Shown: positions 3,168 to 50,479 of the stretch, one piece after another
How positions within the stretch are numbered: the stretch's first letter is position 1
How the letters are laid out: the number at the start of each line of letters is the position of its first letter
Source: Mucilaginibacter sp.
GTDB taxonomy: Bacteria > Bacteroidota > Bacteroidia > Sphingobacteriales > Sphingobacteriaceae
Assembly (NCBI RefSeq): GCF_041088075.1
Contig: NZ_JBGCVY010000049.1
Coordinates: forward strand, 25,203 to 89,202
Reading direction: 5' to 3'
DNA length: 64,000 bases
Translations under genes and position numbers: made by a program
Notes under the pieces: model-generated
The model's input: only the letters and a program-made list of their open reading frames with translations
What the model was told of the DNA's origin: nothing
Database searches by the model: none

Positions 3168-4426
3168 TGAAGCTTTTTGCCACTTATAACCGGGTAAACC
3201 TGGTTACAACCGTGATCGTGATCCTGATTACAGGGGTGGTCTATTACCAGGCCATCAGCCTCATCCTTACCAACCAATTGAACAAAGACCTGGAAGTAGA
3301 AGAGCAGGAAATATTAGATTTTGTAAAACTAAACCACCGGTTGCCGCAGGTTTTTGATTCGAAAGACCAGCAAATCGAGTTTAGGAAAGAACAAAATTTA
3401 CCGGTTAAAAGAAGCTTTATAAACACTTATTATTACAATAAAAAGGAACAGGAAAACGAGCCCGGCCGCGGACTGATCAGTTCTGTTGTGGTAAATGGAA
3501 ACCGCTATAAAGTTTTGATTGCCGAATCTACGGTAGAAACAGAAGACCTGATCAAAATTATTTTTATCATCACTATCGGGATTATTTTACTGTTGATCGC
3601 CATCCTGTTTTTCATCAACCGTTTTATCCTCAACCGCTTGTGGCAGCCGTTTTATGTTACTTTATCACGGATAAGTTCTTTTAATATTATGGATCAGAAG
3701 GAAACCCAAAGGCCGGAGACCAACATTGATGAGTTTAACCAACTAAACGAAGCCGTTGAAAAGATGTGGGCAAGGGTAAAAAAAGAATACCAGGAGCTTA
3801 AAAAATTTACTGAAAATGCTGCCCACGAACTGCTTACGCCAATTGCGGTGATCAATTCTAAATTGGATACGCTTATCCAAACCGACAATTTCAGCCAGCG
3901 GCAAAGCGAATTGTTGAGCGATCTGTATGGTACAGTTTCCAGGTTAAAAAGACTGAACAAAGCCATGCTGCTGCTGGTAAAAATCGAAAACGGATTGATT
4001 GAAGAAGAGCAAATGATCAGCCTGAAAGAAATGGTTACCGAAACCATTGCTTCTTTTCAGGAGCTTTTTTTGGATAAAGACTTGGAAGTGGGCTGCGAAC
4101 TGGAAAACAAAGAAATCAGGGCGAATAATTATTTGATTGAAGTATTGCTGAATAATCTAATTGGCAACGCGATCCGCCACAATTATGCCAACGGAAAAAT
4201 TAAACTCACTTTAAACCATGATTGCCTGATGATACAAAATACCGGTAAAAACATGGCTTTAAATGATAAGGAAATTTTTAGACGGTTTAATAAATCTTCC
4301 GGATCCGAAGGCAGCGGGCTGGGCTTAACCATTGCAAAACAGATTTGCGAAAATTATCATTATCAGTTTTCATACGCTTTTTACCCGCCTTTTCACACTT
4401 TTAAAATTCACTTTCAGCCTGCCTGA
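3167..4426 (+). CDS. Sensor histidine kinase
   Basis: Two TM segments, H-box AHELLTPIA, and N and G boxes (NAIRH, GSGLGLTIAKQ). Its ATG overlaps the response regulator stop (TGATG). Confidence 0.9.
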   Translation: MKLFATYNRVNLVTTVIVILITGVVYYQAISLILTNQLNKDLEVEEQEILDFVKLNHRLPQVFDSKDQQIEFRKEQNLPVKRSFINTYYYNKKEQENEPGRGLISSVVVNGNRYKVLIAESTVETEDLIKIIFIITIGIILLLIAILFFINRFILNRLWQPFYVTLSRISSFNIMDQKETQRPETNIDEFNQLNEAVEKMWARVKKEYQELKKFTENAAHELLTPIAVINSKLDTLIQTDNFSQRQSELLSDLYGTVSRLKRLNKAMLLLVKIENGLIEEEQMISLKEMVTETIASFQELFLDKDLEVGCELENKEIRANNYLIEVLLNNLIGNAIRHNYANGKIKLTLNHDCLMIQNTGKNMALNDKEIFRRFNKSSGSEGSGLGLTIAKQICENYHYQFSYAFYPPFHTFKIHFQPA

Positions 4427-4713: not shown

Positions 4714-7542
4714 ATGAAGCTGCACCTGCTTGTACCTGGGAAACGATGCCTGGCCTTTTTTTTTCTGATCGCACTAATTAAAATCACCAATGCCCAAACT
4801 ATCAAAGGAAAGGTTTATGATTCGGCTTCTGGCGAACCTTTAACAGGTGCCTCGGTTGAGGCAGAGCAAGGCAGTTTTAAACAATATACTTCGGTAAACC
4901 TGGACGGCTCCTATACTTTTCGCAACCTAAAGCCGGGAAAATACGAATTAAAAGCCCGTTTTATCGGCTACAAAACCACCGAAGGACAAGTGGTCGAGCT
5001 GAAAGAAAATGCCACCCTTGTTGTAAACTTGAAAATGCTGAACTCCAGCACCAGCCTAAACGAAATAAAGGTTAAGGGGCAAAGCAGCAAAGAATCAGAC
5101 GGTTCGGCACGGGGAATTGAAAAAAATGCCAGCAGTATAGAAAACGTTCTTTCTGCCAATACCATCCAGCTTTTGCCGGATGTTACGGTAGCCAATGCTT
5201 TGCAACGGGTAAGTGGTGTTACGGTGCAACGGTCTTCAAGCGGTGAAGGGCGTTATGCCATTATCCGCGGGATGGACCAGCGCTACAATTCTACATTGGT
5301 TAATGGCATCAAAATCCCAAGCCCCGACCCTGCATTTCGTTTTGTGCCGATGGATGTTTTCCCTTCGGAGATGCTGGAACGTTTGGAAGTAATCAAAGCC
5401 CTGACCCCAAGCATGGAAGGCGATGCGATTGGCGGGGCAATGAATCTGGTAATGAAAAGCGCACCGGACAGGTTTGTTTTGAGCGCCAATATTTCGGGCG
5501 GATTTTCAAGTTTGTTCTCTTCATCAAGGCCTTTTTCGGCTTTTAGTGCATCGCCAAACAAAACATCGCCGGCAGCAGCAAATGGCAACAGTTATGCTGC
5601 AACTTATAGCGATTTTAATAACAAAGCCATTGCCAGCGATAAAAACCTATCCAGCCCTTTTAGTTCTACCGCCGGAATTACCATTGGCGACCGCTTTTTA
5701 AAGAATAAGTTAGGCGTTATCGTATCTGCCAGTTATCAAAATATTTACCGTGGCTCTAACTCAAAAGAGCTTACCCCAAATGCGCAGCCTTCAGCCATAC
5801 CGCTGCCCAACTCGCCGCAGTTTTCTGATGCTTACGACCGGACTTACTCTACCCAAACCGAACGTTTAGGTATTCATAATAAAATTGATTATGTCATCAA
5901 CGATAAAAACAGGTTGTCCTTATACAATTTATACATCAACCAAAACGAGTTTGAATCCAGGCTAACTTCGGATACTTTAGGCTTAGGTTTAAATTCAACA
6001 GGATTAAGCAAGCAGATCACAATTTTTAACAGGAGCACTTTAACCAAGCAAAACATTTATAACTCCACGCTGCATGGCGAACATATTTTAAGTAACAATT
6101 TAAGGTTTAACTGGAATGCTGTTTATTCTAATGCCAGCAGGCACCAGCCCGACCGTACTGAGTTTTCTTACGATGCCAACAAAGCTTTAAACAATGCGGG
6201 CGTGGTAACTACGGAGATTGACAACAACACGAAACTGACGCATCATTGGGAAAACAACAAAGACCAGGATGTGGCAGGATATGGCAACTTCGTTTACACA
6301 CCTAAAATTGCAAACCGCGATGTCGAGTTTTCTTTGGGCGGCTTGTACCGACACAAAAACCGGGATGCAGATTACATCACTTATTCTTTGACCGGTGGCA
6401 AATCTACTTTGTTTAACGATAATTTCAGTAATATTCCTTTTGGCTTTAATTCGACCGCAGATGGCATCGGTGCCAATAATCCTGACCTTCAAAACAATTA
6501 TACGGTTAAAGAAAACGACAACTCGGAATATTTGCAACTGAAGTTTGATATTGTCCCAAAATTGCAGGCAATAGGTGGTGTAAGGGTTGAAAACACTTAT
6601 ATGATTTATGCAACCCAATCGCCATTAACCGTTACGCAAAGAAGCGGCACCATCAGTTACACGGATGTTTTGCCAAGCATCCATTTAAAATATGCGCTTA
6701 CGGATAATCAAAATTTAAGGGCTTCTTATTTTGCTTCCATCAGCCGCCCTGGTTTTGGTGAAATTGTTCCGTACAAAGTTTCCGGCGAGTACTACGACCA
6801 GGTAGGCAACCCCGATTTAAAACACATTACGGCAGATAATTATGACGTCCGTTACGAACTTTTTCCCGGAGCTGCAGACCAGGTTTTGTTAGGTTCATTT
6901 TTTAAAAAGATACACAACCCGATCGAGTATTTTGTGGTAAGGGAAGGCGGCCCAAGTTCACAAGTTATTAAACCACAAAATGATGAAGGAGACGCCACCA
7001 ATTATGGTTTCGAAGCATTGGTAACCAAGTTTTTTGGCGTGGTTGGGTTTTCTGTTAACTATACTTATACGCATTCCAGGATTACAACAAACAAATTGCT
7101 TTATTATAACGACCCAACTTTAGGTTTGCAGCAATCTTTTGTGAATGAAAGCCGCCCGTTGCAAGGCCAGGCAAATAATGTTGGCAATGCTTCTGTTTTA
7201 TTTAAAAGTGCAAAAATCGGTTTGGATATGCAGGTTTCATTTGTTTTTACGGGAGAGCGGCTGGCACAGGTTTCCCCTTACTACAACTTGGATTTTTACC
7301 AGCATGCCTTTAACCAGTTGGATTTTTCTTTTGAAAAAACACTGCTAAAAAGAGTATCCTTTTACGGCAAAATCAACAACCTGACCAACACCGCCAACAA
7401 AATTTATTTAAAGTTTCCACATGGAAGTTTGGATACAAAACAGCAGGAGTTTTTAGGCAAACAGGATATAGCCGCGCAAACGCTGGTACAAAGCGATTAC
7501 TATAAAACTTTGTTTCTGGGCGGTTTCAGGTACAAATTTTAA
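4714..7542 (+). CDS. TonB-dependent receptor with N-terminal carboxypeptidase-regulatory-like domain
   Basis: About 940 aa with a signal peptide, CarbopepD_reg-like segment (IKGKVYDSASGEPLTGASV), plug domain and C-terminal barrel ending in aromatic residues (GFRYKF). Confidence 0.85.
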   Translation: MKLHLLVPGKRCLAFFFLIALIKITNAQTIKGKVYDSASGEPLTGASVEAEQGSFKQYTSVNLDGSYTFRNLKPGKYELKARFIGYKTTEGQVVELKENATLVVNLKMLNSSTSLNEIKVKGQSSKESDGSARGIEKNASSIENVLSANTIQLLPDVTVANALQRVSGVTVQRSSSGEGRYAIIRGMDQRYNSTLVNGIKIPSPDPAFRFVPMDVFPSEMLERLEVIKALTPSMEGDAIGGAMNLVMKSAPDRFVLSANISGGFSSLFSSSRPFSAFSASPNKTSPAAANGNSYAATYSDFNNKAIASDKNLSSPFSSTAGITIGDRFLKNKLGVIVSASYQNIYRGSNSKELTPNAQPSAIPLPNSPQFSDAYDRTYSTQTERLGIHNKIDYVINDKNRLSLYNLYINQNEFESRLTSDTLGLGLNSTGLSKQITIFNRSTLTKQNIYNSTLHGEHILSNNLRFNWNAVYSNASRHQPDRTEFSYDANKALNNAGVVTTEIDNNTKLTHHWENNKDQDVAGYGNFVYTPKIANRDVEFSLGGLYRHKNRDADYITYSLTGGKSTLFNDNFSNIPFGFNSTADGIGANNPDLQNNYTVKENDNSEYLQLKFDIVPKLQAIGGVRVENTYMIYATQSPLTVTQRSGTISYTDVLPSIHLKYALTDNQNLRASYFASISRPGFGEIVPYKVSGEYYDQVGNPDLKHITADNYDVRYELFPGAADQVLLGSFFKKIHNPIEYFVVREGGPSSQVIKPQNDEGDATNYGFEALVTKFFGVVGFSVNYTYTHSRITTNKLLYYNDPTLGLQQSFVNESRPLQGQANNVGNASVLFKSAKIGLDMQVSFVFTGERLAQVSPYYNLDFYQHAFNQLDFSFEKTLLKRVSFYGKINNLTNTANKIYLKFPHGSLDTKQQEFLGKQDIAAQTLVQSDYYKTLFLGGFRYKF

Positions 7543-7565: not shown

Positions 7566-8987
7566 ATGAACAAATCAATATATATTGTTTTAGTTACAAT
7601 AGTGGCCACACTTTCCGGCTGTAAAAAATGGGAAGGCGAACATACCGATATTTACACTTACACGCCTCCGGCAGCAAACCCGGTGAGTGATAAAGCGCCA
7701 TTGACTTGCAGCGGTGGCAGCACAGTTGTACCGATAAAAGGCACCATGCTTTCCGGCAAAACCTACAATGTTGCAGATGGATGCGATTTGGTTATCAATG
7801 CAAACGATACTTTGCTGATGCAACCTGGCGTAACGTTAAACATGGGCGCAGGCAGCAGTTTGATTGCATTGGGCACTTTGGTAAGCAACGGCTCCAAAAA
7901 CCAGCCAAACTTTATTACGGTTCCTGGAGTGGTTAAAAGTGATGCACCGGGCGGAGTTGCCCCGGCCGCAGACCCTGCTTTTGCCGGAAAATGGAAAGGA
8001 ATTGTAGGCGGCCCAACCTGCAATCTGATGGTATTGCGCTGGACGCATGTTGAATACGCCGGTTTAACAGAAGGCAAGGCCACTTCAACCATTGCGGGTT
8101 CTGGCACAGGAAACCAATACAGCATCTTGTTTGCCAATTATAAAGGCAACTTTATCATGGAAGATTCCTGGTTGTATGGCGGTGTGGATGACCCGATCCG
8201 TGTTTCGGCCGGTAAAATTGCCATCTTCCGCAATAATTTTGAAAAAAATGGCGTTAGCGGTGGCGATTGCATCAATGTAAAAGGAGGAACAGTGGGCACA
8301 ATGGCTTATAACTTTTTTATTGGCACCGCTACAAACGGACAAAAAGCCTCCAACAAAGGCCAGGCAACCGGTGCGCCGCAAACCAACATCGTGATGTACA
8401 ACAACACATTTGTAAATGGAGGCTACCGGCAGTCGCAAACTGGCCGCGGCGGTTGTATCAATTTTGAGGAAGGCGCGGCGGGTATGTATTATAACAATGT
8501 TGCCGTGAATTGTAAATATGGTTTCCGGGTTGTGGGCAGCCCGATTGCCGATGTGGCCCATCTTTCTTATGGCAACAATTTTCAATATGCAGATTCTTTG
8601 AGCGTGGCCAACCAGTTTTATCCAACCGGTTACATCACCCAGCCACAGGTTACAGATATTCCTTCGATCACAACTTCTGCTAAATATCTTCCTGCAAATT
8701 ATGCATTGGGTGCAATTTATGACGGAAGCGATGTTGTCCAAAAAAACAACCCCATGTTTCTTAATTTTCCGTTGCCAACTTTTGGCCATCCGTTGGCGCA
8801 ATACAGTGCGGTTGGTACATATAATTTCCGTTTGCAGGCCTCTTCGCCTTTAATTGGAAAAGGCAAAACCAATATCCAACCCTTAATTGTAGTGCCTTTG
8901 GATAAAATTTACGGCCTTTCGGAAGCTACTGCTGCCGGTTCAGATTTAGGTTGCTACCAGCTTAATGGCACTGGCAACCAGCACTAA
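7566..8987 (+). CDS. Lipoprotein, possible parallel beta-helix fold, partner of the upstream TonB-dependent receptor
   Basis: Lipobox LSGC; repeated NNxF/NG motifs; lies 24 nt downstream of the receptor; no SusD-like features. Confidence 0.5.
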   Translation: MNKSIYIVLVTIVATLSGCKKWEGEHTDIYTYTPPAANPVSDKAPLTCSGGSTVVPIKGTMLSGKTYNVADGCDLVINANDTLLMQPGVTLNMGAGSSLIALGTLVSNGSKNQPNFITVPGVVKSDAPGGVAPAADPAFAGKWKGIVGGPTCNLMVLRWTHVEYAGLTEGKATSTIAGSGTGNQYSILFANYKGNFIMEDSWLYGGVDDPIRVSAGKIAIFRNNFEKNGVSGGDCINVKGGTVGTMAYNFFIGTATNGQKASNKGQATGAPQTNIVMYNNTFVNGGYRQSQTGRGGCINFEEGAAGMYYNNVAVNCKYGFRVVGSPIADVAHLSYGNNFQYADSLSVANQFYPTGYITQPQVTDIPSITTSAKYLPANYALGAIYDGSDVVQKNNPMFLNFPLPTFGHPLAQYSAVGTYNFRLQASSPLIGKGKTNIQPLIVVPLDKIYGLSEATAAGSDLGCYQLNGTGNQH

Positions 8988-9077
8988 TTGTAAATGTTGT
9001 TTTGACAATCCTGTTGCCTTGTACTTTTTAATTTGTATTGATTTTATTATTCTAACTTGCATTAAAATTTCAGTACT

Positions 9078-9222
9078 TGTTTAAATATATTAGAGGAAAA
9101 ATTGCCAATGCTTCTTTTACCCTATAAAAATTGGTGCCTGCATCCATTTAAATAAAACGAATGTTTACCAGTTTTTAGGTGATAAAAGAAGCATGGATAT
9201 TTTATCAAGTAAATTTTAAACA
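9078..9222. repeat. Family-1 composite palindromic element (complete)
   Basis: TGTTTAAAT at 9078-9086, L-arm 9108-9136, loop, R-arm 9168-9194, TTTTAAACA at 9214-9222. Confidence 0.9.
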
Positions 9223-9248
9223 GGAACTTACAATTGTAAACTTAACCC

Positions 9249-9806
9249 ATGAAAAAAACGATAATTCCGCTGCTGCTTTTCACCATATTTTGCCTGGTAA
9301 AAGAAGCATCGGCACAAGCCGACAACCTTAAAATTGTATTTATCCGCCACGCCGAAAAACCTGCAAAAGGAGACAATTTAACCTGCCAGGGATTGAACCG
9401 CGCTTTGCAATTGCCAGAATTGATCCGCCGCAAGTTTGGCGTTCCAAACTTTCTTTTTGCTCCGGGTTTAGGTTTGGGCGAGGCAACCAAACATGCCCGT
9501 ATGTTCCAAACCATTGCCCCAATTGCAATCAAATATAATTTGCCTATCAACACCAGCCATGCCGAAAAAGATTCGATGTTGATTGCGCAAGATTTAAAAA
9601 GCCGGACAGGGACAATTATTGTTGTTTGGGAACATAAAGCCATTGCACCGATCGTCCGGTCTTTGGGTGTAACAGCATCAAATTTGATTTGGCCTGATGA
9701 CGATTATGACAGCATTTGGATTGTTGCTTTTGTAAACGGAAAAGCAGTTTTTTCAAAAGACCGGGAAGGCTTGCACCCCTCTGCTGATTGTAACTTTCAC
9801 CAATAG
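9249..9806 (+). CDS. Secreted histidine phosphatase (phosphoglycerate mutase-like) family protein
   Basis: RHAEK catalytic motif and a downstream WEH. The signal-peptide region is encoded by a full Family-1 R-arm (9281-9309). Confidence 0.7.
   Translation: MKKTIIPLLLFTIFCLVKEASAQADNLKIVFIRHAEKPAKGDNLTCQGLNRALQLPELIRRKFGVPNFLFAPGLGLGEATKHARMFQTIAPIAIKYNLPINTSHAEKDSMLIAQDLKSRTGTIIVVWEHKAIAPIVRSLGVTASNLIWPDDDYDSIWIVAFVNGKAVFSKDREGLHPSADCNFHQ
9281..9309. repeat. Family-1 R-arm inside a CDS (signal-peptide region)
   Basis: CACCATATTTTGCCTGGTAAAAGAAGCAT, encoding FTIFCLVKEAS. Confidence 0.8.
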
Positions 9807-16916: not shown

Positions 16917-17014
16917 AACTTTAAATTTTAGTTTATGTGGAAGGCGGAATCAACAATGGTTCCAAAGCGATTTTGGAGACATAAAAATGACAGGTTGACA
17001 GGGAAAGCAACCTG

Positions 17015-17043
17015 ATGCTTCTTTTATCGGGTAAAAATTGGTG
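17015..17043. repeat. Family-1 L-arm (left half of the element that hosts the MIC insertion)
   Basis: ATGCTTCTTTTATCGGGTAAAAATTGGTG. Confidence 0.85.
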
Positions 17044-17079
17044 TCTTTAATAAGTTTACTTAAATTTATGGGAGAAACG

Positions 17080-17101
17080 CACCCCTAACCCCTCTCAAGA
17101 G
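17080..17101. repeat. Left half of the 34-bp palindrome split by the MIC (includes the 12-bp duplicated target)
   Basis: CACCCCTAACCCCTCTCAAGAG; its partner GGGTTAGGGGTG lies at 18573-18584. Confidence 0.8.
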
Positions 17102-17152
17102 TAACTATATATGAGTTGGGATAAGATTTTTTTGATATTAAAAAAGCAGGTA

Positions 17153-17560
17153 TTAACGTATAATACCTGCTTCAATCATTGTGGATAGTTCAATCTCCGT
17201 CTTTTCTACACACTCATCAATATGACAATAAATTAGGTTGTCTTTTTTATTATCTACAAATATTTTTTTAGCAATACCATCCGTTAAACCAATTATGTTA
17301 TAATGGCAAGGATCGCCTTGCGAATCATCAAATTCTATTTGGCAATTTGGTAATAAGTCCCCACTGAATTTGAAATACATTGGAGGATTGGTGTGTTTTG
17401 GGAAATAGTTTCTAATATGGCTACACGTTCCACCTGACAATTTAATTGCACATTCTGAATCAATAACGGATATTCCGTTTTTACCCCTAAAGGCCATGCT
17501 GTTGAATCTTTTTCCTTTTGTTTCATAATGGTGTAAGGATAAAATTCTGATAAACTCCAT
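17153..17560 (-). CDS. Hypothetical protein (MIC cargo)
   Basis: 135-aa ORF that overlaps the upstream ORF by 226 nt in another frame, so its true start or a frameshift is unresolved. Confidence 0.4.
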   Translation of the reverse strand: MEFIRILSLHHYETKGKRFNSMAFRGKNGISVIDSECAIKLSGGTCSHIRNYFPKHTNPPMYFKFSGDLLPNCQIEFDDSQGDPCHYNIIGLTDGIAKKIFVDNKKDNLIYCHIDECVEKTEIELSTMIEAGIIR

Positions 17561-17982
17561 TGTGTTCTTTGATGTATTAATTCCTTTTTTAATCCCTCTA
17601 TGCTTAAAATATCTGATTGGTATAAATCATTATCTTCTTTGTCCATGATTGAAAAATGAAATTTGTTATCGTTTTTAACAAAAATCTCAACCGCTGAATT
17701 TAAAAAATATATTTTAATTAAAACTTCACCATCAAATCCAGGAAAAACGTCTATTGAGGTAAATAACATATTATAAAGGTAAAAACATAGATTTTTTGAC
17801 CTATCAATTGTTTCTATGTTAAATATTTCACCTTCTCCATAGTGCCAACCTTTCTTAAAGGTTAAGAATGTATCAAGCTTTTTAAAAATTGAATTCTTGC
17901 TTTCGCTTGGATTTAAAACAAATAATCCGTAGTTTATTTTATTTTGTTTCATCATCTCTAAGTTTAGCCATTGCCCGATCAA
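17335..17982 (-). CDS. Hypothetical protein (MIC cargo)
   Basis: 215-aa ORF; internal Met codons at 17955 and 17952 are more likely starts; contains a GWHYGEGE...FPGFDGEVLI motif. Confidence 0.5.
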   Translation of the reverse strand: MIGQWLNLEMMKQNKINYGLFVLNPSESKNSIFKKLDTFLTFKKGWHYGEGEIFNIETIDRSKNLCFYLYNMLFTSIDVFPGFDGEVLIKIYFLNSAVEIFVKNDNKFHFSIMDKEDNDLYQSDILSIEGLKKELIHQRTQWSLSEFYPYTIMKQKEKDSTAWPLGVKTEYPLLIQNVQLNCQVERVAILETISQNTPILQCISNSVGTYYQIAK

Positions 17983-18268
17983 TTACATCAGTAGTCATTA
18001 TTTCATTGTTTGAACTTGTTTCCAATCCTACAATTAATCCAGAAAGTTGCATAACAAGCGTTTTAGCAACACTCAAAGATAAGTTAAGTACAGCCTTAGA
18101 CTCATTATTTAGTTTTGCAAGTATTACTATATCGGCATTTGTCATTCCCGTTACAAATCCGTTAAAATAAAGCTTAGGTACATTAGGGTCTTTGTTCGCT
18201 TTGGGTAAATCGTTTACATCTGGCGTTGGTGGTGATATTTTTTGATATTTTAATGTTTTGTCAGACAT
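17939..18268 (-). CDS. Hypothetical protein, DUF3467-like (MIC cargo)
   Basis: 109 aa. The pattern YFNGF..(T/S)..D(I/V)V(I/L)......V.L.LS...AK.L...L matches my recollection of DUF3467; not verified by search. Confidence 0.45.
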   Translation of the reverse strand: MSDKTLKYQKISPPTPDVNDLPKANKDPNVPKLYFNGFVTGMTNADIVILAKLNNESKAVLNLSLSVAKTLVMQLSGLIVGLETSSNNEIMTTDVIDRAMAKLRDDETK

Positions 18269-18560
18269 AATTACTGTTTGATTGCTTACTATATAGGTTT
18301 ATTTTAAACAAAATACGAAAAGATTTTCTTTTTATTTGGTATAAATGTAATTACAATTACCACATTAAAGTGTATAAATTTTGTTAAGGTTTTTCTTTTT
18401 TTGTGTTTTCCTAAAAAATACTCTAATAGCCTCATCAAACTACCTTTGATAGCCATATCTCTTTTTTCATCTTTAACAGGAGGCGGTTTTTCTTTTTTCT
18501 CCTTTGCCGATACTGCATTAAAAAACGGTTCACACCCTTGTTCCAACTCGTATATAGTTA

Positions 18561-18584
18561 CCCTATCAAGAGGGGTTAGGGGTG
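18561..18584. repeat. Right target-duplication copy plus the right half of the split palindrome
   Basis: CCCTATCAAGAG followed by GGGTTAGGGGTG. Confidence 0.8.
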
Positions 18585-18607
18585 TGTCCTTTCAACAAAT
18601 ATTTAAT

Positions 18608-18657
18608 GCTATAAAAGCATCAGGTTCAAAAACCTTTCTCTATACAAAATTGGTGAC
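18608..18657. repeat. Degenerate Family-1 remnants (R-like GCTATAAAAGCAT, L-tail-like TATACAAAATTGGTG)
   Basis: Partial matches only. Confidence 0.4.
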
Positions 18658-19040
18658 TATTCCTTCTTCTCCAACTCCTTCTCCTTCACCTTAGCTTCCG
18701 TTTTTTCGATCTTGATGTCCAAGCGGATCAAGCCGTACAAACTCATGTAAATGTTGGCAATCCAAACCAGACTGAAACCGGCAATTAAATAGCCGCGCCA
18801 ACCATCAAACAACAATTTGTAACCGGTAATGATCAGCATAAAAATGGTGATGTAATGGCTGAAACAGTATTCGCAGGTAAACAAATAGAAAAACTTACGG
18901 GCGGCCAGTGTTTTTTGTTCGTGGCTGTTTTTCACGCAAAACTCCCGGATCTCTTTAAAAACTTCTTCGTGCGTAACCGTCCACGAAATGCAGGCAACCG
19001 GAATGGCCAGCACAAATAACATAACGAAAGGGTTGTACAT
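18657..19040 (-). CDS. Small integral membrane protein
   Basis: 127 aa with 3-4 predicted TM helices. A variant Family-1 arm ends 3 nt upstream of the ATG. Confidence 0.55.
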   Translation of the reverse strand: MYNPFVMLFVLAIPVACISWTVTHEEVFKEIREFCVKNSHEQKTLAARKFFYLFTCEYCFSHYITIFMLIITGYKLLFDGWRGYLIAGFSLVWIANIYMSLYGLIRLDIKIEKTEAKVKEKELEKKE

Positions 19041-50325: not shown

Positions 50326-50450
50326 TCATCCCCCTAACCCCCTTCAAAGGGGGGAAGCCTATCGCCTACCTTTCTAAAGTTCAAAAGATTGGGGATGAAA
50401 AGATATGCGCCCTGGTCCTTTTCCCCCTTTGAAGGGGGCCAGGGGGATGA
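50326..50450. repeat. Family-3 inverted hairpin pair (TCATCCCCCTAACCCCCTTCAAAGGGGG type)
   Basis: Arms at 50326-50354 and 50421-50450, each internally palindromic; located between the ABC ATPase and permease genes. Confidence 0.8.
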
Positions 50451-50479
50451 CCTTAATTTTTACCCGATAAAAGAAGCAT
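50451..50479. repeat. Family-1 solo R-arm
   Basis: CCTTAATTTTTACCCGATAAAAGAAGCAT. Confidence 0.8.

Follow-up and report, generated by a model that had tools for sequence, protein, structure and literature searches.

A 64-kb stretch of DNA from a Mucilaginibacter sp. metagenome-assembled genome (MAG), referred to here as the window, carries a compact element between htpG and a gene encoding a 127-amino-acid (aa) membrane protein. The element is bounded by terminal inverted repeats and a short target duplication, and it holds three open reading frames (ORF1, ORF2, and ORF3) on the minus strand together with a further small ORF next to its right end. Its features are given below, with positions counted within the 64-kb window and with reference to L001, a longer metagenomic relative that includes a transposase gene.

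17092 to 17099: left copy of the target duplication, CTCTCAAG
17100 to 17125, plus strand: terminal inverted repeat AGTAACTATATATGAGTTGGGATAAG, the counterpart of the cargo-side end of L001; its tip is AG where the consensus is GG
17143 to 17173, minus strand: terminator-like hairpin, a 13-bp stem followed by a T run, overlapping the ORF3 stop codon
17153 to 17560, minus strand: ORF3, 135 aa, the Cys/His-rich C-terminal domain, with a conserved ATG and in the −1 frame relative to ORF2
17335 to 17955, minus strand: ORF2, 206 aa when started at ATGATG (215 aa when started at a TTG further upstream), the N-terminal domain
17939 to 18268, minus strand: ORF1, 109 aa, a small protein with at best a distant likeness to DUF3467
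18304 to 18546, minus strand: 80-aa ORF, whose segment at about 18400 to 18504 shows homology, in local alignments of both DNA and protein, to the 47-aa ORF located after the transposase in L001
18505 to 18536: approximate deletion junction, where about 1.7 kb is missing that in L001 comprises a 191-aa gene and the transposase
18537 to 18562, minus strand: terminal inverted repeat GGTAACTATATACGAGTTGGAACAAG, the counterpart of the transposase-side end of L001
18563 to 18570: right copy of the target duplication, CTATCAAG, with one mismatch

The interior of the element has a G+C content of 0.25–0.35, compared with about 0.41–0.49 in the flanking genes, in agreement with an earlier note on this DNA that had described it as AT-rich. 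The outer arms, CACCCCTAACCCCTC (17080–17094 and 18570–18584), are perfectly complementary, and removal of the element and one repeat copy leaves a 34-bp hairpin, its arms 15 bp long and its loop TCAA, which is the same split palindrome that the note had reconstructed as the empty site. In five metagenomic loci (L041–L044 and L049) with an HtpG that is 90–91% identical, the 127-aa gene, a spacer of about 145 bp, and htpG follow one another, and the hairpin and the element are both missing at this orthologous site. The possibility that the inverted ends belong to a larger syntenic block conserved in relatives, which the note had named as grounds for giving up an insertion, does not hold for these loci, as they lack the segment.

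The inverted ends themselves, TAACTATATATGAGTTGG (17102–17119) and TAACTATATACGAGTTGG (18543–18560, minus strand), agree at 17 of 18 positions, and the inverted repeat reaches 28 nucleotides (nt) at 86% identity. As a degenerate 18-mer, the end has only two matches in the 64 kb at three or fewer mismatches, where 0.06 would be expected, so the ends proposed from the sequence are present and unique in the window. Directly abutting them are the 12-nt strings CCCTCTCAAGAG (17090–17101) and CCCTATCAAGAG (18561–18572), which had been taken as a 12-bp duplication. We compared 39 ends of this type from 32 loci with unrelated flanks and found GG directly outside TAAC in 38 of them, the sole exception being the left end in the window, which has AG. 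Because the GG tips are present whatever the flank, the two outer bases are part of the element, which therefore spans 17100–18562 (1,463 bp) and is flanked by a target duplication of 8 bp, identical at seven positions. The apparent 12 bp is the sum of this duplication, the 2-bp element tip, and 2 bp of palindromic target, and we rejected the longer duplication accordingly. Duplications of 8 bp flank the seven paired elements that were checked: five are perfect (L012, TTAATTTA; L020, TTATAGTT; L032, GACGCAAC; L039, TCAAAAAT; L001, CTTTGAAG), and those of L034 and the window match at seven of eight positions. Eight base pairs is also the target-duplication length given by ISfinder for the IS1595 family. 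The terminal inverted repeats of about 26 bp, both of which are kept in the window copy, have the consensus GGTAACTATATAYGAGTTGGGACAAG; the ends of the family start with GGTAACTAT, and ends of this type may also be written GGTAACTATATAYGAGTTGG.

Searches against Pfam, PHROGs, and PADLOC revealed no transposase, integrase, or recombinase domain within the element, as the earlier note had stated, and no transposase was found anywhere in the 64-kb window. The segment from 17100 to 18562 is thus not an autonomous insertion sequence (IS). Elements with the same ends and a transposase do exist, however, and both these and further copies of the ends, which the note had suggested looking for, were recovered. 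In a word-indexed search, the only homologue of ORF1 other than itself is P0003 (67% identical), encoded at ten metagenomic loci (L001–L010), in each of which a transposase with a zinc ribbon and a DDE_Tnp_IS1595 domain precedes the ORF1 homologue. L001 has the same end 18-mer at positions 4005 and 7184, enclosing an element of 3,184 bp with the tips included. Its genes are, in order, an opposite-strand 191-aa gene, the transposase, the 47-aa ORF, the ORF1 homologue, a 213-aa ORF2 homologue, and the ORF3 frame, followed by a terminator; identities to the window cargo are 67% for ORF1, 46% for ORF2, and 62% for ORF3. When corrected for a −1 shift, the L001 transposase matches PF12762 with an E-value of 8.6e-45 over positions 1–153 of 153 and PF12760 with an E-value of 2.5e-7.

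Scanning 185,579 species genomes for TAACTATATAYGAGTTGGRA yielded 30 loci across Bacteroidota (Mucilaginibacter, Pedobacter, Chitinophagaceae, Flavisolibacter, Dyadobacter, Arcticibacterium, and others), so that identical ends of 18–24 nt are known from these 30 genome loci as well as from L001–L010. Uninterrupted transposase matches adjoin the same ends at L011, L013, L017, L032, L035, and L039, and it is these loci together with L001–L010 that combine the ends with an IS1595-type transposase. Shorter or rearranged relatives share the ends as well. L012 (6802–7168) is a 367-bp copy without a transposase that resembles a miniature inverted-repeat transposable element (MITE), and L020 (1358–2023) is a transposase-less copy of 666 bp. 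At L014 (6261–7661), a 57-aa transposase remnant accompanies an EcoRI-like adenine methylase (E 2e-118). L032 (626–3621) holds a full-length transposase, an unannotated 284-aa protein, and a PIN-domain protein, and L034 (3528–5991) holds a DUF5615 and DUF433 pair and an aspartyl protease with DUF5678.

According to PMC3129680, which cites Siguier, Gagnevin & Chandler 2009 on this point, the IS1595 family is where elements that carry passenger genes, termed transporter ISs, were originally defined. The window element resembles such ISs in the zinc-ribbon and DDE_Tnp_IS1595 transposase of its same-ended relatives, in the 8-bp duplication, in the passenger genes between its inverted repeats, and in ends that begin with GGTAACTAT; it differs from them in that it has no transposase of its own. 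The ISNwi1 subgroup of IS1595 has the end consensus ggnnatTAT and includes passenger-bearing variants. The ends studied here fit this consensus at eight of nine positions, a comparison that covers end sequences.

The alignment with L001 indicates what the window copy has lost. Despite a DNA identity of only about 73% over the cargo, at which the two would count as different ISs by the usual naming rules, the terminal 18 nt of the two elements are identical to within one base. At the transposase-side end, homology to L001 covers the first 27 nt and then resumes in the region of the 47-aa ORF, and from this gap we conclude that the window copy lacks about 1.7 kb, in which L001 carries its 191-aa gene and transposase. 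The 47-aa ORF is kept after the transposase in L014, L034, and L035, and L031 has a weak match on the opposite strand. The 80-aa ORF of the window is therefore probably a remnant or the upstream region of the cargo and not a fourth cargo gene.

Further observations concern L001 and its kin. The 191-aa gene (L001 4112–4687, minus strand), which has no Pfam match, sits between one inverted repeat and the transposase, and a 31%-identical counterpart occupies the same place in a Mucilaginibacter element (L013 6890–7234); the gene counts as a second passenger or accessory gene that has been conserved, and it is gone from the window copy. In L001 (5215–5226), and also in L002–L010, the transposase gene is split at GGA_AAA_AAG, which contains a canonical A_AAA_AAG −1 slippery heptamer in the correct frame, and in L013, L039, L032, and other relatives the transposase matches run uninterrupted across this point. 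The split reflects either an inactivating mutation or expression that depends on frameshifting. The chromosomal surroundings of L001 are rich in addiction modules, with a DUF2683 and ParE/YoeB pair at 821–1287 and a weakly Zeta_toxin-like gene with an 80-aa partner at 8808–9688.

Taken together, these features lead us to regard the segment from 17100 to 18562 as a non-autonomous, internally deleted derivative of a passenger-carrying IS1595-family IS that has kept its cargo operon, a reading to which we assign a probability of roughly 85%. A DDE transposase would have made staggered cuts 8 bp apart at the center of the 34-bp hairpin, and the loss of about 1.7 kb with the transposase and the 191-aa gene would have left the small-ORF remnant and the terminator-ended cargo operon. 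Several points weigh against this account. The tip of the left end is AG instead of GG, and the duplication has a mismatch; these changes suggest that the copy is not recent, and it may be old and no longer mobilizable. The cassette is known in a single copy, its proteins form one-member clusters from one contig, and scans of genomes, metagenomes, and viral contigs turned up no further copy, so the mobility of the deleted form is hypothetical. The exact empty site, searched for as a 45-nt pattern of the intact hairpin and its flanks, was not found in the metagenome contigs, and the relatives that lack the element also lack the hairpin. Finally, Pfam, NCBIfam, PHROGs, PDB sequences, and fold searches assign no function to the cargo.

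The structural part of the earlier proposal, that this is a mobile insertion cassette (MIC), is borne out: IS-type inverted repeats enclose genes unrelated to transposition and no transposase, same-ended elements with an IS1595 transposase exist, one of them (L001) carries homologues of the same cargo, and the orthologous site in close relatives is empty. Whether the cassette moved as such is a separate matter. In a true MIC, the transposase would already have been gone on arrival, and a cognate IS1595 transposase elsewhere in the genome would have inserted the element in trans. The almost intact inverted repeats are in keeping with this course of events, as are the other transposase-less derivatives with the same ends (L012 at 367 bp, L020 at 666 bp, and L014) and the presence of transposase-bearing relatives in Mucilaginibacter genomes, for example L013 and L039. 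Recognized kinds of IS derivative, namely MITEs, MICs, and solo inverted repeats, can moreover be activated in trans by a cognate transposase (PMC3129680). Against it stand the failure to find a second copy of the deleted form in any of the collections searched and the lack of a transposase in the available 64 kb, and deletion in place after a full-length insertion would produce an identical structure. We consider arrival in trans a serious possibility that falls somewhat short of probable. We lean slightly toward loss of the transposase in place, after insertion, which is at least as likely as an earlier loss followed by arrival in trans. A close described parallel in structure is MIC231 of Bacillus cereus, a cassette of the IS231/IS4 family according to PMC3129680, where De Palmenaer et al. 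2004 is cited for it. The two have in common IS-type inverted repeats, genes unrelated to transposition, the absence of a transposase, and a recognizable IS lineage, but they belong to different IS families and host phyla, and the window cassette is known in a single copy. For MIC231, mobilization in trans has reportedly been shown by experiment.

The cargo operon is compact. The end of ORF1 lies inside the ATGATG start of ORF2, an overlap of 17 nt, and ORF2 and ORF3 overlap by 226 nt; in the annotation of the MAG, the 206-aa protein is V5804_12055 (hypothetical) and the 109-aa protein is V5804_12060. We counted substitutions between the window and L001 at codon positions 1, 2, and 3 and obtained 31/18/59 in ORF1 and 54/35/77 over the 131 codons at the start of ORF2. 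Within the overlap, the counts are 15/16/36 with 19 synonymous codons in the ORF3 frame and 19/34/19 with 5 synonymous codons in the ORF2 frame. From these patterns, ORF1, the N-terminal part of ORF2, and the whole of ORF3 evolve as coding sequence under purifying selection, and the tail of ORF2 is not coding-like in its own frame. The coding-like part of ORF2 is thus limited to about the first 131 codons (17561–17955), which include a GWHYGEG motif, and the remaining 75 codons overlap ORF3. Nevertheless, the ORF2 frame stays open for 75–81 codons over the start of ORF3 in four diverged split members (window 17335–17560, L001 6715–6958, L124 2027–2261, and L128 1839–2082), although synonymous recoding of ORF3 leaves it open in only 0–10% of trials. 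The ATG of ORF3 is nested in a conserved Trp codon of ORF2 and is kept in every split member examined.

Homologues show how these two frames are related. An exhaustive HMMER search (E ≤ 1e-3) with a conceptual fusion of the N-terminal part of ORF2 and ORF3 as the query returned 803 representative homologues. Many of these are 130–145 aa long and align from their first residue to the start of ORF3, where more than 100 representatives begin; others of about 170–230 aa match only the N-terminal part, and single chains of 259–279 aa (P0009, P0013, P0014, P0015, P0059, and P0078) are collinear with the fusion. Since both half-length and fused homologues occur, ORF2 and ORF3 are halves of one two-domain protein family, and the second cargo component is split into ORF2 and ORF3 here and in the closest relatives and fused elsewhere. 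The earlier count of three genes plus one is correspondingly reduced: ORF1 stands as a gene, the 215-aa and 135-aa ORFs are overlapping halves of one family, and the 80-aa ORF is probably a remnant. An ORF1 homologue is the upstream neighbor of the two-domain gene in every locus that covers the region, that is, in L001 and, directly upstream and outside any recognizable IS, in L121, L124, L128, L131, and L132. In L124 and L128, a search for inverted repeats flanking the module gave AT-rich chance matches only.

The arrangement of ORF3 in the −1 frame of ORF2 raises the question of whether programmed −1 frameshifting joins the two into a protein of about 268 aa, as in the transposases of IS3 or IS1. 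Selection changes frame near the ORF3 start, fused single-chain homologues exist, and X_XXA_AAG heptamers lie in the ORF2 frame 30–33 nt before the ORF3 ATG, as A_AAA_AAG in the window and T_TTA_AAG in L001. The heptamer is, however, not conserved across the family. L122 and L124 have a −1-frame stop 1–4 codons before the ORF3 ATG and no later slip site, L128 has no heptamer before the ATG, and L123 has only an imperfect A run; where heptamers are present, they coincide with a conserved Leu-Lys-Lys motif. In addition, the ORF3 ATG is found in all split members examined and serves as the first codon of more than 100 representative proteins. With no usable site in L122, L124, and L128, we rejected frameshifting as the general mechanism linking ORF2 and ORF3, and we judge it improbable in the present element.

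Other searches returned little. In the word-indexed search, ORF2 matched only itself and ORF3 had no match, and an exact-sequence look-up of the window proteins and P0001 found no record. Among other collections, plasmids, viral contigs, and Rfam gave no match. Profile searches of both cargo families were likewise empty in PDB sequences, NCBIfam, and Pfam; the only match to the cargo is a weak one between the N-terminal domain and PADLOC PDC-M32A (E 4e-4). The description of ORF1 as DUF3467-like can be kept only in a weakened form. The window protein and P0003 have no Pfam match at E ≤ 10, and the likeness comes through the L121 homologue (30% identical, E 8e-13 to ORF1), which scores 21.9 bits against PF11950 (E 1.8e-4) and so lies below the 25-bit gathering threshold. 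Any relationship between ORF1 and DUF3467 would appear, at this level of similarity, to be distant at best.

The structure of the fusion is predicted with confidence, at a mean predicted local distance difference test score (pLDDT) of 87.9, with an N-terminal domain made up of two helices plus a sheet of five strands, followed by a C-terminal α/β domain. The model of ORF1 is too poor for use (pLDDT 57). The fold search with the fusion model found no PDB match better than an E-value of 0.09. Fold matches in BFVD were limited to uncharacterized phage proteins and covered one domain. The near-invariant residues of the C-terminal domain are, in fusion numbering, Arg137, Phe151, Phe156, Ser163, Cys169, Cys178, His180, Tyr185, Pro191, Asp215, Cys217, His218, and Cys244. 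This pattern, with six Cys/His residues overall, suggests a possible metal site or Cys/His active site.

The cargo of sister elements and the genes found near the module elsewhere offer circumstantial evidence on function. Sister elements carry a PIN-domain protein (L032), the DUF5615 and DUF433 pair and the aspartyl protease with DUF5678 (L034), and the EcoRI-like methylase (L014), and the neighbors of the module elsewhere include AbiEi-like, RelE, and Peptidase_M78 genes. An addiction or defense role is, on these grounds, the most likely one for the cargo, although still less likely than not. Toxin–antitoxin pairs are carried in Tn3-family transposons, and the present module resembles transposon-borne type II toxin–antitoxin systems in being a small co-oriented operon of overlapping genes with the small protein first, housed in a transposable element, with PIN and DUF5615/DUF433 pairs in its sister elements. 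It differs from them in that searches of Pfam, NCBIfam, PHROGs, and PDB revealed no recognizable toxin or antitoxin domain, and in its uncommon architecture, a two-domain protein that is often split into overlapping −1 ORFs.

A toxin–antitoxin-like or defense-like role is plausible, and under it the cargo would be a selfish stabilizing module in which the small ORF1 protein would control a Cys/His-rich effector, with the result that the element is kept in the genome. Stated in full, this would be a widespread and hitherto unrecognized two-component addiction or anti-phage module, with a DUF3467-like ORF1 protein restraining the effector, that IS1595 elements spread and that in turn stabilizes them, and in one Bacteroidota clade the effector gene would be kept as two ORFs in the −1 relation with an overlap of about 230–245 nt. 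So specific a picture is possible but doubtful. The overlap itself may set the ratio of the products. That the cargo instead supplies accessory or regulatory factors for transposition is very unlikely. It does lie inside the inverted repeats of two diverged elements, the window copy and L001. In L121, L124, L128, L131, and L132, however, the module is found with neither these ends nor a transposase, and the cargo is quite different in sister elements that share the ends and have related transposases.

The surroundings of the insertion are themselves unusual. Compared with the relatives, the window has about 1.6 kb of extra DNA at this locus, bracketed by a 13-nt direct repeat (17034–17046 and 18646–18658) that matches at 12 of 13 positions. 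The features outside the element are the following.

17034 to 17046: left outer direct repeat AAAATTGGTGTCT; the relatives have a single copy, CACCAATTTT
17047 to 17091: left part of a hairpin-bearing unit of about 128 bp, including the left arm CACCCCTAACCCCTC (17080–17094); the unit is missing from the relatives
18571 to 18645: right part of the unit of about 128 bp; the right arm spans 18570–18584, and base 18570 is common to the arm and the duplication
18646 to 18658: right outer direct repeat AAAATTGGTGACT, overlapping the stop codon of the 127-aa membrane-protein gene

When reconstructed, the 128-bp unit folds around a central stem of 24 bp, and the half-palindrome of the window is identical to L001 3906–3929. 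The direct repeat that brackets the unit suggests a small repeat that is mobile or recombines. A nested event is the simplest reading, in which the hairpin unit of about 128 bp came first and the IS-derived element then entered its central hairpin; the target hairpin would thus have lain in a repeat-like unit inserted earlier between htpG and the 127-aa membrane-protein gene. The 13-nt repeat around the unit (17034–17099 and 18563–18658) can be written AAAATTGGTG[T/A]CT.

A different repeat, GRTAAAAGAAGCAT, occurs 76 times in the window at three or fewer mismatches, compared with 3 occurrences expected, often in intergenic regions as inverted pairs about 75–80 bp apart. Examples are 9107–9121(−)/9181–9195(+), 24069/24150, 38949/39030, 44131/44212, 53019/53099, 54273/54353, 56882/56963, and 62239/62313. 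One copy lies just beyond the element at 17014–17028(−), and the motif is also present upstream of htpG in the relatives. This is probably the repeat that the earlier note called Family-1, and its statement that the interior of the element is free of that motif agrees with our count of zero copies of GRTAAAAGAAGCAT within the element.

Across the family, the majority of target sites are 8-mers without hairpins that are AT-rich and nearly palindromic, TTAATTTA and TAAATTTA among them. The loops of hairpins with C-run and G-run arms are occupied in the window, L001, L013, L027, L028, L030, and L037, that is, at about 7 of 32 independent sites, which amounts to a preference and not to a strict restriction; intact CCCC-N8-GGGG hairpins number only two in the 64 kb, both in a repeat unit at 50326–50450. 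The transposase appears to prefer symmetric targets, repeat hairpins included, or, alternatively, insertions in hairpins may be preferentially retained, being harmless. IS1397 and ISKpn1 of the IS3 family insert into the hairpins of repetitive extragenic palindromic (REP) sequences or palindromic units. The present family resembles them in several independent insertions at the center of an intergenic repeat hairpin and differs in that its hairpin preference is not exclusive and in its transposase family and duplication length.

Some individual sites deserve mention. The unit at 50326–50450 contains two unoccupied CCCCC-N6-GGGGG hairpins, and the right one (50415–50455) agrees with the reconstructed target of L001 in about 32 of 34 bases and so serves as a paralogous empty site. 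At L021 (5645–5668) and L032 (3596–3619), in MAGs of different genera (Flavisolibacter and Chitinophagaceae), an end lies beside the same 8-mer, GACGCAAC, and the downstream flanks are alike, so this may be an orthologous or a hot-spot insertion. L019 has two ends in the same orientation 387 bp apart (5809–5832 and 6196–6219), each followed by an identical 30-nt flank, which suggests a local tandem duplication that included the end of an element.

The nature of the ends and the target also bears on two explanations that we regard as extremely unlikely. One holds that no insertion took place and that the repeats arose by chance or from the structure of a conserved intergenic block; the region is AT-rich with many short chance repeats, and the palindromic target inflates the apparent direct repeat, but the ends are unique in the window against an expectation of 0.06, recur with 8-bp duplications at over 30 unrelated sites, and disappear with the whole segment in relatives with a 90% identical HtpG. 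The other, a derivative of a hairpin-targeting, single-strand transposon of the IS200/IS605 type, would suit the target at the center of a perfect hairpin with 15-bp arms and the other copies in similar hairpins, but terminal inverted repeats, an 8-bp duplication, and a DDE transposase in relatives are none of them features of IS200/IS605, and the family inserts mostly into AT-rich 8-mers that lack a hairpin.

As a type of element, the IS1595 derivative in the window is ordinary, a further case of an IS1595 element that picked up passengers and decayed to a transposase-less cassette. The cargo is the more useful outcome, as it represents a widespread, uncharacterized protein family of about 800 representative homologues that has no entry in Pfam and no relative of known structure in the PDB. 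Its appeal lies in a confidently predicted two-domain fold, six near-invariant Cys/His residues, a conserved layout of overlapping split genes, and small size. Its carriage by an element whose sister copies bear PIN and methylase genes makes it a reasonable candidate for a new toxin–antitoxin or defense family.

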